Shown one piece after another: positions 15,325-41,854 of a DNA stretch of 64,000 nt. How positions within the stretch are numbered: the first letter of the stretch is position 1; the number at the start of each line of letters is the position of its first letter. Origin of the DNA: a virus; IMG/VR virus record IMGVR_UViG_3300035661_000043, positions 15,756-79,755 of that record. One strand, 5' to 3'. Under the pieces are notes generated by a model. It worked only from the letters and a program-made list of their open reading frames with translations, was not told the DNA's origin and ran no database searches. The position numbers were made by a program, and so were the translations under genes.

Positions 15325-17031
15325 ATGATTATCTTCGAAAGTATAAGAATCAAGAACTTCCTCAGTTACGGCAATGCATGGACTGAATTAAATCTCAGAC
15401 AGGGAAAAGTACTAGTTGCAGGTGCCAATGGGGCAGGAAAATCTACTATGGTAACTGATGCTCTGTAGTATGCACTATTCGGTAAGCCATTTCGTAAGAT
15501 CAATATCCCACAATTGATCAACTCTATCAACCAGAAGGATTGCCAGGTAGAACTAGATTTCTAGATTGGCAAGGATTCTTACCAAATTAAGAGAGGGATG
15601 AAACCGGGGAAGTTCGAAGTATACAAAAATTCAGAATTGATAAAACAGGAAGCAGCAACAAAGGATTATCAATAGTATCTTGAGCAGCAAGTGCTGAAGA
15701 TAAATCATAAGACGTTTGTACAGATTCTTGTTCTTGGTTCTGCTGTTTTTACTCCTTTTATGCAATTAGCAGCCGGTCATAGAAGAAATGTGATTGAAGA
15801 TCTTCTAGATATCAATGTTTTCAGCACTATGCTTAGATTGCTTAAGGAAAAGATTCAAGTCAATAAAGAAGAAACTCTAATCATCAATGGTAAACTAGAA
15901 TCAGCTAAGAAGGAATAGATTGCACAGAAAAGACTCATTGAAACATTGAGTTCTAAGAGTGATGATCAATTGGTAATTCTGTATTCTGAACTCACATAGT
16001 TACAGAACGATATAGTATCGGCAAAATAGAAGAGAAATGATGTACACAAATTACTTGAATCTATCCAGATTCCTGACTTTATGTCAGAAGAATTAGAAGA
16101 TATAAGAGTTGAATTCAATACACTGAAAAAGTAGATTCAATCAGATATCAAGAAGATAGATTCAGTCTCCGCTATTCATTCATGCCCAACATGTTTACAG
16201 TCTGTAACTGATGATCACAAAGTAAGAATCAAGACTGAACTAAAATATAAGTATGATCAACAGAAACCGAAGCTAGATCAGTATTCTAAAAAAGTTGAAG
16301 AACTGACTACACAGAAAGAATTGTTTGATACAGCAAAGATCGAACAGCAGAAAATGTTGAAAGAACTTGCTGCGATAGACCAGAAAATAATTTCCCTTGA
16401 AGAACAAGAATCTTCCACACGAGTGAAGATCGAGACACAGAAACAAAGTTCTTCTGCAGACTTGGAAAAAGAAAAAGATCGACTCAGAGATTTAGCACAA
16501 TCTGCTCTTATGTTGATTGAACGCAAGAACGAATTGATCACAGAGAAATAGATTCAAGAAGTCTCTCTAGGTCTTCTGAAGGACACAGGTATTAAGGCTA
16601 GTATCATCAAAGAATACCTGCCGATTCTCAATAAGATGATCAACAAGTATCTATCTGAGTTCGACTTTTTCATTAATTTTGTATTGGATGAAAATTTCAA
16701 TGAACAGCTGTTGAGCAGAGGAAGAGATTCGGCTTAGTACTTCTCTCTATCAGAGGGTGAAAAGAAGCGAGTAGATGTTGCAATTCTTCTCGCATTCAGG
16801 CATATTGCTTCTCTAAAGAATTCTGCAAAGATCAATTTGCTTGTTCTTGATGAACTTGATTCTGGGTTGGATCACGACTCTCGTTTGAAGTTGCTAGAAT
16901 TGATCCAGACTATGGATTCCGATGTCTGGATGGTCTCCCACTCTATACAGAACACTGAACTTGAACAGCAGTTCGATAAGGTGACTTTTGTAATGAAGAA
17001 GGGAGATTTTTCAGAAATGATCATCAAGTGA
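15325..17031 (+). CDS. 46: Recombination ATPase gp46, Rad50-like (9 in-frame TAG)
   Basis: KNFLSYGN, GANGAGKST, LFGKPFR, CPTC hook, SEGEK, LDE; one frame to TGA 17029. Confidence 0.95.
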
Positions 17032-21327: not shown

Positions 21328-21912
21328 ATGTATTTGTATGACTTAGAGACACTTGGTGTAAATGAAACAGCTGTAGTACTTTCTATAGGTTGCATTTATA
21401 TCAGTTCACCAGAACCGTGTTCATATCATGATTTGATGAAGAATTCTTTCTTCGTGAAATTGGATGCTAAACATCAAATCCAAAAACTGGGTCGACAAGT
21501 TACTTCCTCTACCGTAGATTGGTGGGCAAAACAAAGCACCGCTGCTAAGCATACATCATATATCCCAAGTAAGAATGATGTGACACCTGACGTGGCGCTT
21601 CAGCAACTACGGAAGTTTGTCTATGACAACACCGGGCAATCTCGAGTCAAGTGCTATACTCGTGGATCCATGGATGTTATTGTTTCAGAGCATTTGGCTA
21701 AGCAAGTCGACATGAAACTTCCTTGGGTGTATAATAACTTCAGAGATATTCGTACTGCTATCGATATTCTATACACACTCAGTAAAGATGGGTATGTGGC
21801 AGTAGACCAGACAAAATGCTTTGGTTACACAGATGACATGACTATTGCGCACAACCCAGTGCACGACTGTGCTCGCGATGCTGCAATGCTACTTTTTGGA
21901 AAGACTGAATGA
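21328..21912 (+). CDS. DexA-like 3'-5' exonuclease
   Basis: DLETLG, TVDWW, RDIRT, HNPVHDCARD. Confidence 0.85.
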   Translation: MYLYDLETLGVNETAVVLSIGCIYISSPEPCSYHDLMKNSFFVKLDAKHQIQKLGRQVTSSTVDWWAKQSTAAKHTSYIPSKNDVTPDVALQQLRKFVYDNTGQSRVKCYTRGSMDVIVSEHLAKQVDMKLPWVYNNFRDIRTAIDILYTLSKDGYVAVDQTKCFGYTDDMTIAHNPVHDCARDAAMLLFGKTE

Positions 21913-23414
21913 CAAGATTTTATACAAACGTAGTAAGACTCGGGAACAATATCTGTGTCCGAGAGCAAACAGAAACTGGACCTAGCAAGTTTAAAACTCG
22001 TTACCAGCCAACATTATTTCTAAAGACCGACAAGGAGTCAAAGTTTAAGACTCTGTACGGAGATTTTGCTAAACCCGTGCAACAAGACTCGATGTCAGAA
22101 GCACGAGAGTTCATCAAGAAATATGAAGGTGTACGTGGGGTAGAATTGTTCGGTCAGCATAACTGGGTTCTTCAGTACATTAATGAGACATATTCTGGAT
22201 CAGTTAACTTTGACCCAAAACTGATTTCTGCTTGGTCTTTAGATATAGAAACGCTATTGTTTGAAGATGCAGAAGGAAAGATTACTGGCTTCCCGAATGC
22301 AGAGACAGGTGATTGTGAAATCACTCTTATCACAATTCAATGTCTGCAGAGCAAACAGTGCTTCACATTTGGCTCACGCGAGTATAAAGGTGAAAAAGTT
22401 CTTGATAGCAGGTACATGAACTGTGGATCTGAAAGGGAAATGCTTAAGCAGTTCATACAATTTTGGCAACTCAAATCAGTAGAAGTGATCACTGGATGGA
22501 ACATCGAGCGGTTTGATATTCCGTACATTGTGAATCGTGTAAAAGTAGTTCTCGGAGAAGAATGGGCCAAGAAGTTATCACCGTGGGAATCAGTTGAAGT
22601 TATTAAGAAACGTGTCTCCGGTGGGTTTGGTGGAGATGAAGAAATCATCTGTAATATTGCTGGTGTGTCTATTCTAGACTATATGGCTCTGTACAAGAAA
22701 TTTGTGTTTGTAAAACATGAATCTTACTCGTTAGGGCATATTGCACAGGAAGAACTTGGTGAGACCAAATTGGACCACTCGGAGTATAAGAACTTCAATG
22801 AGTTCTACTGGAAGGGGTTTGATGCAAAGTATGTTGACTATAACATCCGAGATACGCAACTTGTTGCTCGTCTTGAAGATAAATTGAAACTTATTGAGTT
22901 AGTCTATACTCTGGCATATTTGGCAAAAATCAACTTTACAGATGTTTTCAGTCCTGTAAAGATGTGGGATTCTATTCTCCACAACAGGCTGTTTGGTGAA
23001 AATACGGTTGTGCCACTGAAGGAACACAATCCTGATGGTGACAAGCACATCGAAGGTGCTTATGTAAAGGACCCATCAGTTGGTATGCATGAATGGGTTA
23101 TCTCATTAGATGCTACAAGCTTGTATCCATCCATCATGATGACACTGAATATCAGCCCAGAAACATATCGAGGTATTGACAAAGAATACAATGTTGATTC
23201 TTTGTTGGCTGGGAAAATGAAGTTGGATCCACCTCAAAATCAAGCATGGGGACCGAATGGTTCCAAGTTTGAAATTACTACACGCGGTGTTATCCCAAAG
23301 ATTGTAGAAGAAATGATGGCAGATAGGAAATCTTCTAAAAAGAAAATGCTTAATAGGACTCAGGATCTGGAACACATCAAGACAGAAATCACCAGGCGTG
23401 GATTGAAAGTGTAA
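21909..23414 (+). CDS. 43: DNA polymerase gp43, part A (exonuclease, motif A)
   Basis: DIET, GWN..FDIPY, YNIRD, DATSLYPS; ends at the fingers tip with TAA. Confidence 0.95.
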   Translation: MTRFYTNVVRLGNNICVREQTETGPSKFKTRYQPTLFLKTDKESKFKTLYGDFAKPVQQDSMSEAREFIKKYEGVRGVELFGQHNWVLQYINETYSGSVNFDPKLISAWSLDIETLLFEDAEGKITGFPNAETGDCEITLITIQCLQSKQCFTFGSREYKGEKVLDSRYMNCGSEREMLKQFIQFWQLKSVEVITGWNIERFDIPYIVNRVKVVLGEEWAKKLSPWESVEVIKKRVSGGFGGDEEIICNIAGVSILDYMALYKKFVFVKHESYSLGHIAQEELGETKLDHSEYKNFNEFYWKGFDAKYVDYNIRDTQLVARLEDKLKLIELVYTLAYLAKINFTDVFSPVKMWDSILHNRLFGENTVVPLKEHNPDGDKHIEGAYVKDPSVGMHEWVISLDATSLYPSIMMTLNISPETYRGIDKEYNVDSLLAGKMKLDPPQNQAWGPNGSKFEITTRGVIPKIVEEMMADRKSSKKKMLNRTQDLEHIKTEITRRGLKV

Positions 23415-26977: not shown

Positions 26978-27059
26978 ATAAGCCTTTAGTTGGTTGAGTA
27001 AAGTCATCGGGAACGCCAATTCCGCGGGTGACACCTATTCATAATTGTGGAGTTTAGTA

Positions 27060-28502
27060 ATGCAAATTGAGTCAGTGATTATATCGAGTCTTTTGATTAG
27101 TGAGGACTACGCCAGAAAGGTAGTTCCTCACCTTGAAAAAGAATATTTCGCAGAAAGAGTTGATGCTCTCATTTACGATGAAATCAATACTTTCTTCTTG
27201 AAATTCAATGTGCTTCCTACAAAGGATGTACTGCGTGTGCAAATTACAGACAAGTCAGGTATTTCTAATTCTGATGCCGAAGACGCTCTTGCTAGGATAC
27301 AAGGTCTTTCAACCGAGCCGAAAAATCTAGATTGGCTAATAGAAAAGACTGAAGCATTCTGCAGAGATCGTGCTCTGTACAATGCTATCATGAAATCTAT
27401 CACCATCATCGACGGCAAAGATCAGAAACACTAGCGGGAAGCAATCCCTAGTATTCTTCAAGAAGCATTGGGGATTTCTTTTAACACTGCGGTTGGTCAC
27501 TAGTATCTTGATGATGCAGAAAAACGGTTTGATTTTTATACTCGTGTTGAATCTAAGATCGTCATGGATATTGAGATGTTCAATAAGATCACAAATGGCG
27601 GACTGAGCAGAAAAACTCTAAACATCTTATTAGCTCAATCTGGTGGTGGTAAATCATTGGTGATGTCGCACATGGCCGCAGGATGTTTACGAGATGGATT
27701 AAATGTACTCTATATCTCTATGGAGATGTCCGAAGAAAAGATCGCAGAACGTATCGATGCCAACTTACTTGATGTTGAAGTTGACAAGATCAAAGATATT
27801 GGTAAGGATATCTTCTGCACAAAAATTTCTAATCTTGCAGCTAAGACTCACGGAAGATTGTTTATCAAGGAGTATCCATCCGGTGCAGCACACACAGGTC
27901 ATTTCCGCGGTCTGTTAGAAGAACTGAAAACTAAGCAAGATTTTACCCCTGACATTATCTTCATTGATTACCTTGGCATCTGTGCTTCATCTAGGGTGAA
28001 GATGGGAGGGTCAGTTAACTCTTATGCTTACCTGAAATAGATAGCAGAAGAACTTCGTGCATTTGCCACAGAGAATGATGTGCCTGTCGTGACTGCAGGT
28101 CAAGTGAATCGTGGTGGGTACAACACCACAGATTTAGACATGACTGACACATCAGAAAGTTTAGGTATTGCTATGACCGCAGATGTGATGCTAGGTATTG
28201 TTCGAACTGAAGAACTCGATGATATGAATCAGTTGATGATGGTACAACTGAAAAATAGATATTAGGATCCCACTATCAATAAAAGATTTACTGTCGGTCT
28301 AAATCGCGCTAAGATGAAGTTATATGATCTGGAAGGGATGGCAAATTCCGGTTTCACACCAGATGCAAAAAATAAAACATATGCACCAAAAATTGCATAG
28401 AACACCAGAGAAGACACACCGGTATCAGAAGATGTTATAGAATAGTTACCGGTTGCAGGTATTAAATCTAAAACAGTCAACACACAAGGATTCGCGTTTT
28501 GA
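27060..28502 (+). CDS. 41: Replicative helicase gp41 (6 TAG)
   Basis: FCRDRALYNA, AQSGGGKS, SMEMSEEKIAERID, IDYLGIC, K*IAEELR, KNRY*DP. Confidence 0.95.
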
Positions 28503-34280: not shown

Positions 34281-34356
34281 GGGACTATAGTTTAATGGTT
34301 AAAACATCACCCCTTTAAGGTGTAAGCTCTCGGTTCGAATCCGAGTAGTCCTACCA
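34281..34356 (+). tRNA. tRNA-Lys(TTT)
   Basis: GGGACTA/TAGTCCT, CACC-CCTTTAA-GGTG, ACCA. Confidence 0.8.
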
Positions 34357-36865: not shown

Positions 36866-36941
36866 TGCGGCGTGGAGAAGTAGTATCTCATCAGTCTCAT
36901 AAGCTGAAGGTCGTCTGTGCGATTCAGACCGTTCGCAACCA
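36866..36941 (+). tRNA. tRNA-Met(CAT), initiator-like
   Basis: TCAGT-CTCATAA-GCTGA, AACCA; imperfect acceptor. Confidence 0.65.
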
Positions 36942-37454: not shown

Positions 37455-37820
37455 TGTGCGATATCTCTATCGCACATCAGAATGACTGTATGGATCTTCG
37501 GATCTGTGAAGTTGAAAGAAATGTGTTCAGGAAGCGAGTTCGAGTCTCGCCAGCTCCACCAGAAGTATATCATCTGATGCATTCTGTGTGCTGTATATAT
37601 TGCAAGTATTCAGTATACTTCTGATGGGGCTGTATTGGTTTCGACTGGGCAATGAGTATGGAGATGGACAGTTTGGCAACGCAGAAGCCATTATGATTGG
37701 GTCTTCCCGGTTGAAGAAGCAAACAAAAGTAAAAGCAAACGCTGATACATTCCTGATGGCGGCTTGATCGCCCAGTGAGGATTCCTTGGGTGTTCCTTAT
37801 TACCAAAACACCCATCCTAA
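37455..37820 (+). ncRNA. ssrA: Circularly permuted two-piece tmRNA; tag ANADTFLMAA (outer ends approximate)
   Basis: T arm plus CAGCTCCACCA ends at 37561, before GGGGCTGTATTGGTTTCGAC at 37626; G3-U70 pair; tag frame 37735-37767. Confidence 0.9.
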
Positions 37821-37825
37821 TATAC

Positions 37826-37913
37826 GGAGAGTGGACCTGCAGGGTGCAGGCGCTGTTTGCTAAACAGTTGGTGTCAGGAATGGCATTCCGGTCGGGACGG
37901 ACTCTCTCCTCCA
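37826..37913 (+). tRNA. tRNA-Ser(GCT)
   Basis: GGAGAG/CTCTCC, CTGT-TTGCTAA-ACAG, long variable arm, TCCA. Confidence 0.75.
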
Positions 37914-38540: not shown

Positions 38541-38877
38541 CCTGGAAAGAGGAAGTTGTTAACTATACTTCCTCTTCATAGTAAGCAGAAGGTGGATCTA
38601 TGTACAGTAGCACGCACTTGACATTCTTATTTTTAATGAGTAAATCATGATCATCAAAGCTAATGTTTCTGTGTGTGATATCACAGATAGGAACTACGGT
38701 AAGTATATCGAAGGTGCTGCAGCTATTGCCGTGGTGCAACCGGTCGCTGGTGTGCTGTACTCTGGTTTGGTCCTGAGTATATTGCAGAGAATGATTTGAA
38801 GATCACCTCTCGTGAAGAAGCAGTTAAGAAGATTGAAGCACTGGGAGATCAGGTAGATTCTTAAAGAAAGATAAATT

Positions 38878-39141
38878 GCAAATTTAGCTCAATGGTTAGA
38901 GCAGCGGACTCATGAAAAATTGTGCACCTAGGTAGGGATGCTTAGTGTGAATGTTGTCAAATTCGAAGAAACCTAAGTCAGAAATGATATGGTAACCTCG
39001 AGCCAAGCCTGAGAAATTAGGTGCTGTGTAGAGACTAGACGGCAACCATCTAGAACAGATGAAGGTATAGTCCAGGGAGTGGCGAAAGTCACACAAACCA
39101 GAATCCGTTGGTTACAGGTTCGAGTCCTGTAATTTGCACCA
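38878..39141 (+). tRNA. tRNA(CAT), probably Ile2, interrupted by a group I intron
   Basis: Exon 1 38878-38913 ends CTCAT; exon 2 39102-39141 AATCCG..ACCA; the spliced product is a canonical cloverleaf. Confidence 0.92.
38914..39101 (+). mobile_element. Group I intron (188 nt), Azoarcus tRNA-Ile type
   Basis: GTCAAATTCG..AAACCTAAG, GAGCCAAGC, GTAGAGACTAGACGGC, ATAGTCCAGGGAGTGGCGAAAGTCAC, terminal G. Confidence 0.93.
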
Positions 39142-39185
39142 AGAATTAATGCGAGGTTGGTATAGATAGATGGTAACCTCTTAAA

Positions 39186-39260
39186 CGCACCGTGGCTGAA
39201 ATGTTAGGCAGTGGATTGCAAATCCACTTTATGAGATCTCAGAATTCTCCGGTGTGTCCA
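39186..39260 (+). tRNA. tRNA-Cys(GCA)
   Basis: GTGGA-TTGCAAA-TCCAC, U73 CCA; atypical T loop. Confidence 0.7.
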
Positions 39261-39379
39261 TATTTTTCAGTAAGTGACTAAGAAATAATCTATCTCTGAT
39301 GTTCGTATAATGAGCTGTTTCTCTTAGTTAGAAGATAAGAGAATATTGAACAACCCATTGTATTTGTTCTTAAAAATTC

Positions 39380-41764: not shown

Positions 41765-41854
41765 GGAAGTTTGGCAGAGTGGTTTATTGCCGCGGACTCT
41801 AAATCCGCTGAATCAGAGATGGTTCCACGAGTTCGAATCTCGTAACTTCCTCCA
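41765..41854 (+). tRNA. Amber-decoding tRNA with CUA anticodon and Ser-type body
   Basis: GGAAGTT/AACTTCC, GCGGA-CT-CTA-AA-TCCGC (anticodon 41799-41801), 6-bp variable stem with GAGA loop, perfect T arm, TCCA. Confidence 0.95.

Follow-up and report, generated by a model that had tools for sequence, protein, structure and literature searches.

The split tRNA gene at 38878-39141 raises the question of whether a phage can carry, within a tRNA gene, a working ribozyme of the kind that interrupts the Azoarcus pre-tRNA-Ile and, if so, which tRNA is restored by splicing and where the intron came from. Coordinates throughout are those of the window, the whole 64,000-nt stretch of DNA that was analysed, unless another record is named. 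All phage introns known in 2014 lay in protein genes, despite the many tRNA genes of phages (Hausner 2014, PMC3984707). The introns later found in the tRNAs of Lak phages were described as ‘enigmatic’ and left unclassified, with no earlier phage tRNA introns reported (Devoto 2019, PMC6784885), and the survey of Williams 2020 (bioRxiv 10.1101/2020.01.27.920355) covers bacteria only. In the literature that we searched, no group I intron is described from a phage tRNA.

With introns allowed (ARAGORN -i), a tRNA(CAU) is found on the + strand that folds into a perfect cloverleaf, 76 nt long once spliced and with its CCA encoded, and an intron of 188 nt is placed between positions 36 and 37 (ctcat-intron-aatcc). 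In its default mode ARAGORN calls no tRNA at 38878-39141, and tRNAscan-based pipelines also skip this gene. The Rfam group I model (RF00028, Intron_gpI) gives 66.4 bits over 38902-39094, above its gathering threshold of 50 (E 1.2e-14, model positions 1-253), and this is its only match in the 79.8-kb record. The intron holds no ORF and has no room for a homing-endonuclease gene, and a Pfam search of the ORFs around the tRNA cluster returned no homing endonuclease. The initial annotation, made from the letters alone, had described a group I intron of this position and length, inserted 3' of the CAT of a phage-encoded tRNA and free of ORFs; each of these points proved exact. The U at position -1 (T38913) forms a U.G wobble with G38922, a pair invariant in 38/38 aligned sequences, and the omega G (G39101) directly precedes the 3' exon. 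By its sequence and its drawn helices (Table 1), the intron belongs to group I and to the IC3-like ‘Ile2.5Ug’ class, the class of the Azoarcus pre-tRNA-Ile intron.

Table 1. Parts of the split tRNA(CAU) gene and its intron, in window coordinates.
Feature	Position	Strand	Description and basis
tRNA 5' exon	38878..38913	+	acceptor 5' strand, D arm, anticodon stem 5' strand, loop C-U-C-A-U; U36 (38913) is -1; ARAGORN -i
Group I intron	38914..39101	+	no ORF; omega G 39101; RF00028, alignment, drawn helices, pair counts
P1	38911..38924	+	exon CAU (38911-38913) and intron GA with UUGUG (38920-38924); loop AAAA
P2	38925..38949	+	bulged U 38946, GGGA tetraloop 38935-38938; 10 pairs, all standard in the window
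P3 5' strand	38953..38958	+	GUUGUC; partner 39041-39046; 100% paired
P4-P5 domain	38963..39001	+	P4 is 38963-38968 with 38996-39001, one A x C
P5	within 38963..39001	+	11-nt receptor CCUAAG (38972-38977) / UAUGG (38988-38992); L5 GAAA 38981-38984
P6 and short P6a	39002..39027	+	P6 39002-39003 with 39026-39027; P6a 39007-39012 with 39017-39022, GAAA loop
J6/7, P7 5' strand, J7/3, P3 3' strand	39028..39046	+	P7 GACUA 39033-39037, J7/3 GAC, P3 GGCAAC 39041-39046; holds the conserved 17-mer GTAGAGACTAGACGGCA
P8	39047..39061	+	5-bp hairpin CAUCU/AGAUG, loop AGAAC; alignment, distance tally
J8/7 and P7 3' strand	39062..39072	+	J8/7 AAGGUA, P7 UAGUC (39068-39072); drawn helices, pair counts
P9	39079..39092	+	GUGGC-GAAA-GUCAC; 100% paired, 4/5 pairs covarying
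tRNA 3' exon	39102..39141	+	A37 A38, anticodon stem 3' strand, variable loop, T arm, acceptor 3' strand, A73, CCA; ARAGORN

Relatives of the intron were sampled through the 17-mer of J6/7-P7-P3' (Table 1), which is found in 62 IMG/VR contigs and, among the matches listed, in more than 120 bacterial genomes, none of them an Azoarcus record. In this 17-mer-sampled set the bacterial tRNA(CAU) copies come nearly all from Betaproteobacteria (Polynucleobacter, Methylophilaceae, Oxalobacteraceae, Rhodocyclaceae, Neisseriaceae and Chitinibacter). As Azoarcus-type reference we take L193, a Rhodocyclaceae copy with a 205-nt intron, presumed equivalent through a 19-nt motif of the published Azoarcus ribozyme. 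Insertion after CAU at 36/37 is common to all 43 non-redundant relatives. At 188 nt the window intron is the shortest of the 44 family members sampled (198-249 nt in the others) and, as had been proposed, shorter than its Azoarcus-like counterpart. The proposal that it is more AT-rich holds only relative to L193 (44% vs 60% GC); in the family GC content reaches down to 42% (median 48%). Aligned globally, the intron is 69-77% identical to family members; BLAST aligns intron positions 38-188 to three relatives (G001-G003) at 73-76% and, to L193, only positions 113-186 at 82%, so that the Azoarcus likeness is one of site, class and core and not of close identity. In a maximum-likelihood tree the window intron is nested in the family, within a six-member clade (support 96/98) that also holds the Polynucleobacter copy L126, the copy L075, two Burkholderiales MAGs and the viral copy L021; all six have a bulged U in a P2 of the pattern CACC...GUGUG. 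This phylogeny places it closest to Polynucleobacter-type copies of Burkholderiales and to viral copies rather than to Azoarcus itself.

The spliced product is probably tRNA-Ile2, to judge from its exons. In its D arm, anticodon arm and variable loop the tRNA does not differ from the tRNA(CAU) of L193, and 5' exon positions 6-36 match E. coli tRNA-Ile(CAT) at 29/31 positions, in 5424/5426 genomes and at ~2 places per genome, with the G27.U43 pair common to both tRNAs. That the product is instead an elongator tRNA-Met is unlikely, although this alternative has several points on its side. ARAGORN labels the gene Met, by its anticodon, and the contig, 45% complete, holds no homologue of TilS (PF01171). 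Moreover, the determinants of E. coli TilS are C4-G69 and C5-G68, and the window tRNA has A4-U69 and A5-U68 at these places, which counts against the Ile2 reading. A tRNA-Met would, however, have to be reconciled with an exon whose best E. coli matches are annotated tRNA-Ile, with the Ile-like G.U at 27-43, with an anticodon arm of the Azoarcus type, and with a second tRNA(CAU) at 36867-36937. It would also have to be reconciled with the intron site, for which Ile2.5Ug, subgroup IC3, is the classical class name and which is filed under Ile2 (Williams 2020, bioRxiv 10.1101/2020.01.27.920355). The second tRNA(CAU) scores 45 bits with Rfam, is missed by ARAGORN and has irregular D arm and acceptor pairing; it may be the tRNA-Met of the phage. 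ATA is used at 13 per 1000 codons in the long frames.

The helices P1-P9 were drawn by homology with the relatives, on an alignment (A1) made from sequence only of the window intron with 37 non-redundant tRNA(CAU) introns that share its site (31 bacterial, 6 on viral contigs). All of them form in the window, where the single non-standard pair is an A x C in P4. Over the 38 sequences 84% of the cells are paired, compared with 29-45% when the partners are slid, and 26 pairs show double changes, compared with 14.4 +/- 1.8 in shuffles, none of 500 of which reached as high a count. Pairing is 99-100% in P1, P3, P6, P7, outer P8 and P9; in P1 it is 99.4%, with the C-G and A-U pairs as invariant as the U.G. 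P3 and P7, the two helices singled out for scrutiny in the initial annotation, are both present and 100% paired, with double changes in each, and covarying pairs number two in P3 and four in P9. Only 48% of P2 is paired, because the register differs between two P2 subtypes in the sequence-only alignment. The window alone shows two compensatory changes: P3 pair 2 is U-A there and G-C in the 37 other sequences (pair 3 is C-G in three sequences), and one P4 pair has changed from G-C to A-U. Further compensation is found in wastewater relatives, where A38966G and T38998C together turn a P4 A-U into G-C. In one of these relatives, contig X5, T39010C with A39019G turns a P6a U-A into C-G and C39083T with G39088A turns a P9 C-G into U-A; G39011A (P6a, X5) and G39082A each change a G.U to A-U. 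The window intron also keeps every column that is invariant across the family. Complete and compensated, P3 and P7 indicate that the pairing is present and under selection. Minimum-free-energy folding recovers only P4, P5, P6a and P8 (z -2.3), as is expected because the ribozyme is pseudoknotted.

We consider it very likely that the region is a functional phage tRNA(CAU) gene split by a group I ribozyme, its product most likely being a tRNA-Ile2 that reads AUA after lysidine formation. In the mechanism that we propose, the split gene would be transcribed as part of the phage tRNA cluster and the 188-nt intron would fold through P1-P9, with a P3/P7 pseudoknot core and with the L9 GAAA presumably docked on the 11-nt receptor of P5. 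An external guanosine would attack after U36, which is held in its U.G wobble by the guide GUG; the terminal G39101 would then take the same pocket, and exon ligation would restore the anticodon loop CUCAUAA. A host TilS, which we assume, would turn C34 into lysidine to give a tRNA-Ile2 that reads AUA. The intron itself would persist as a phenotypically near-neutral passenger without an endonuclease gene, and, if it moves at all, would do so through reverse splicing or through recombination of tRNA alleles with and without the intron. Three features count against the functional reading: a lost L2-P8 contact, the A x C in P4 and a terminal branch eight times the median.

The first of these concerns the periphery of the ribozyme. 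The Azoarcus structure has two tetraloop-receptor clamps, L2 GAAA-P8 and L9 GAAA-P5, of which the L2-P8 contact aids folding. In the window L2 is GGGA, compared with GAAA in 37/37 relatives, and P8 is, in the window alone, without the 11-nt receptor CCUAAG...UAUGG that 37/37 relatives possess. Judged from the alignment, both partners of the contact have been lost together, and only the L9-P5 clamp of the Azoarcus type is intact. The clamps are peripheral and do not define the class, so the class membership of the intron stands, but with this contact lost self-splicing may be weak or chaperone-dependent. A stronger form of this idea, that the catalytic design is intact but not self-sufficient and that without the L2-P8 clamp the intron splices in vivo only with the help of an RNA chaperone, from host or phage, or of a protein cofactor, strikes us as quite unlikely. 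It can draw on a combination of GGGA L2 and receptor-less 5-bp P8 that is unique among the 38 aligned sequences, on the shortened P6a and on the A x C in P4. Minimal P8 hairpins are, however, found in other IC3 tRNA-intron classes (e.g. CCCGAAAGGG, at 8 viral loci), which indicates that a small P8 is tolerated in the subgroup; the L9 GAAA and the P5 receptor CCUAAG-UAUGG are both kept; and the new GAAA loops L5 and L6a might compensate for the lost clamp.

The terminal branch of the window intron is the longest in the tree (0.39, compared with a median of 0.048), which could mean relaxed constraint. Carried further, this branch, the missing tertiary contact and the P4 mismatch would make the intron a decaying, non-splicing relic and the tRNA a pseudogene, a reading that is very improbable for an intron that has retained every family-invariant core position, in which, as in its close relatives, the changes in P3, P4, P6a and P9 compensate each other, and whose exons form a flawless cloverleaf. 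The acceptor stem of the window tRNA is AT-rich, unlike that of every bacterial copy, and taken together with the long branch suggests a long residence in phages. The anticodon stem is of the GCGGA/UCCGU allele, the Azoarcus/Methylophilaceae type, whereas the clade-mates of the intron have GAGGA/UCCUU; this disagreement between intron clade and exon allele hints at separate histories for intron and exon. As to the host, the betaproteobacterial host hinted at in the initial annotation finds an echo in relatives that are almost wholly betaproteobacterial in our sample, but the long branch and AT-rich acceptor stem run counter to it, and we take it, from the intron relatives only, as a weak hint of a host in the Betaproteobacteria.

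The source record is an IMG/VR virus of 79,755 bases, 45% complete by CheckV, from a microbial mat. The phage is T4-like, with PHROG matches to portal, major head protein, DNA polymerase, UvsX and helicase as well as to both topoisomerase II subunits, rIIA and rIIB. By major head protein its closest cultured phages are Pelagibacter phage HTVC008M (61%) and Methylophilales phage Melnitz (59%), followed by T4-like cyanophages; the hosts of these nearest cultured phages are SAR11, OM43 and cyanobacteria. The tRNA cluster, at 33.8-41.9 kb, comprises 13-14 tRNA genes and a permuted tmRNA and has T4-like genes on either side. Misassembly of bacterial DNA onto a phage contig, a thought raised by an intron family otherwise almost wholly betaproteobacterial, is extremely improbable, since in the source-run assembly one 4.7-kb contig covers the entire 801-nt stretch in its intron-containing form with zero differences, a contig from a second study's run covers 38750-39110 with the 5' junction and the complete intron, a 3.8-kb wastewater contig ~94% identical over 38620-39142 retains the split gene, and the gene, with its AT-rich acceptor stem unlike all bacterial copies, lies within a 14-tRNA cluster between T4-like genes. 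The wastewater contig has fewer differences within the split tRNA gene than in the upstream ORF.

A search of sequencing runs for the stretch listed no RNA run, and a promoter and terminator scan gave nothing above chance. Contig joints 38913>39102 and 38913>39108 were considered as spliced RNA and rejected: the contigs are 60-220 nt long, with mismatches and foreign flanks, and by their sequence derive from other organisms, whose tRNA(CAU) genes have no intron.

The window has several other features of note. Reading TAG as sense joins many broken frames over 1-64000 (e.g. 15325-17031, 27045-28502 and 108-2147), with nine in-frame TAGs in a frame of 568 aa and six in one of 485 aa; the portal gene is also fused in this way. 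When frames are delimited by TAA or TGA, 6.4 of every 1000 codons are TAG, and the pattern fits amber reassignment. A 90-nt long-arm tRNA(CUA) at 41765-41854, labelled ‘Pyl’ by ARAGORN, is a candidate decoder of the recoded TAG, and a tRNA(UUA) at 34281-34356 (67 bits on the Rfam tRNA model) would read TAA. The tmRNA of the cluster is of the permuted two-piece kind (37502-37767, Rfam tmRNA_permuted 94.7 bits; ARAGORN 37469-37858; tag ANADTFLMAA), and a permuted tmRNA inside the tRNA cluster is known from Melnitz-like phages and pelagimyophages (PMC9004378). At ~39187-39262 a further element resembles a tRNA and is called by neither ARAGORN nor Rfam; it combines a 7-bp acceptor stem and a Cys anticodon (GCA) in the stem-loop GUGGA-UUGCAAA-UCCAC with a weak D stem and an atypical T loop (CUCAGAA). 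Matches to 39192-39250 also occur in other metagenome contigs. The DNA polymerase frame at 21909-23414 corresponds to no more than the N-terminal half of the usual family, of 856 positions, and matches a 502-position PHROG end to end, and the polymerase gene may be split.

Split tRNA genes are not confined to this phage. The initial annotation had remarked that phage group I introns usually sit in protein genes; reviews agree, but the tally of phage tRNAs does not, with dozens of split tRNAs in IMG/VR and further cases in the phages Atu_ph07 and LR756501. About 50 of the 62 viral contigs with the 17-mer have an intron-split tRNA according to ARAGORN, 24 of them Leu-UAA and 10 CAU; the remainder are Lys, Arg, Tyr and others, which are less secure calls. 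Several lie within tRNA arrays, and four of the contigs are jumbo phages, 92-100% complete and 235-442 kb long. A query with the T4-like capsid protein matched none of five viral contigs with the nearest tRNA(CAU) introns, several of which are only 1-9% complete (CheckV), and some ‘viral’ contigs of low completeness may be host flanks of proviruses.

The cultured Agrobacterium phage Atu_ph07 has an unannotated tRNA-Leu(UAA) (record positions 112884-113257, within L207, MF403008.1 112284-113857) with a 278-nt group I intron at U34/A35 (RF00028 48.9 bits in a whole-record search). A ‘hypothetical protein’ CDS is annotated over part of this split tRNA, and the genome paper of the phage used tRNAscan-SE and leaves introns unmentioned. 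The 735-kb uncultured phage LR756501 likewise has a group I intron in tRNA-Leu(UAA) (RF00028 56.6 bits); a second and stronger group I match, of 96 bits, lies at LR756501.1 718159-718390. When run on the excised Atu_ph07 and LR756501 loci, RF00028 gave no match even at E 0.001; the whole-record search matched both, so we take the blank as a quirk of the tool. The only match to the window tRNA and intron in a blastn search of GenBank phages was an intron in a capsid gene, in KT997847. The L017 query matches, over 60 nt (239-298), 9/9 Prevotella Lak-B genomes (H58-H66, ~290 kb) at 78%, and going by this match a group I intron may be among the ‘enigmatic’ introns of Lak tRNAs. Intron-less tRNA(CAU) genes are found in 12 viral contigs, and those of L215, L216 and L218 are identical to the spliced window tRNA from position 8 to 65, an indication that intron-plus and intron-minus alleles of one tRNA coexist in phages.

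By these comparisons the window intron is an addition to a known class in an under-reported setting and is not unique. On the data here, the statement that phage group I introns occur only in protein genes is an annotation artefact: standard tRNA finders and GenBank annotation miss split genes, and phage tRNA repertoires, along with the codon-supply arguments built on them, are therefore incomplete. Phage-mediated spread of tRNA introns, suggested in the initial annotation, is plausible as a candidate process. We offer only tentatively, as possible though doubtful, the broader proposal that phage tRNA genes are a large overlooked reservoir of IC3 introns and a vehicle between bacterial tRNA genes, and that the 188-nt copy, clampless at L2-P8, is the smallest of the natural self-splicing introns of the Azoarcus class. 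It would fit the grouping of the intron with Burkholderiales copies against a different tRNA-Ile2 exon allele, as well as the intron-less phage alleles with an identical tRNA body. An ORF-less intron with both alleles present in phages makes a natural system for the spread of endonuclease-free introns, and the cultured phage Atu_ph07 offers a bench system for phage split tRNAs. Structural studies of RNA gain a ready-made minimal variant of the Azoarcus ribozyme, 188 nt long and lacking one of the two clamps.

Set beside the Azoarcus type, as represented by L193, the window intron has the same gene type, 36/37 site and guide GUG pairing with CAU, and the same J3/4, J6/7-P7-P3', J8/7, P9 GAAA and P5 11-nt receptor, with identical D and anticodon arms in the exons. 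It differs in being 17 nt shorter and lower in GC, in its GGGA L2, its receptor-less 5-bp P8, its short GAAA-capped P6a and its L5 GAAA, and its carrier is a T4-like phage and not a bacterial chromosome; the two are not grouped in the tree. With the Burkholderiales Ile2.5Ug copies (L126, L075, L147 and L159) it shares the P2 subtype CACC...GUGUG with its bulged U and the J2/3 AAU, at a best tree-alignment identity of 76% (L126), whereas those copies keep the L2 GAAA and the P8 receptor. The tRNA-Leu(UAA) introns have an IC3-type core with the same 17-mer region and also split the anticodon loop, but of another tRNA and at another site, U34/A35. The introns of T4 td, nrdB and nrdD (sunY) and other phage introns are likewise group I ribozymes, of T4-like and other phages; they belong to subgroup IA, lie in protein genes, are larger and often carry homing-endonuclease ORFs. 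In the Lak megaphages, too, introns occupy phage tRNA genes; theirs were not assigned to a ribozyme class, whereas that of the window is, by its sequence and drawn core, clearly group I.
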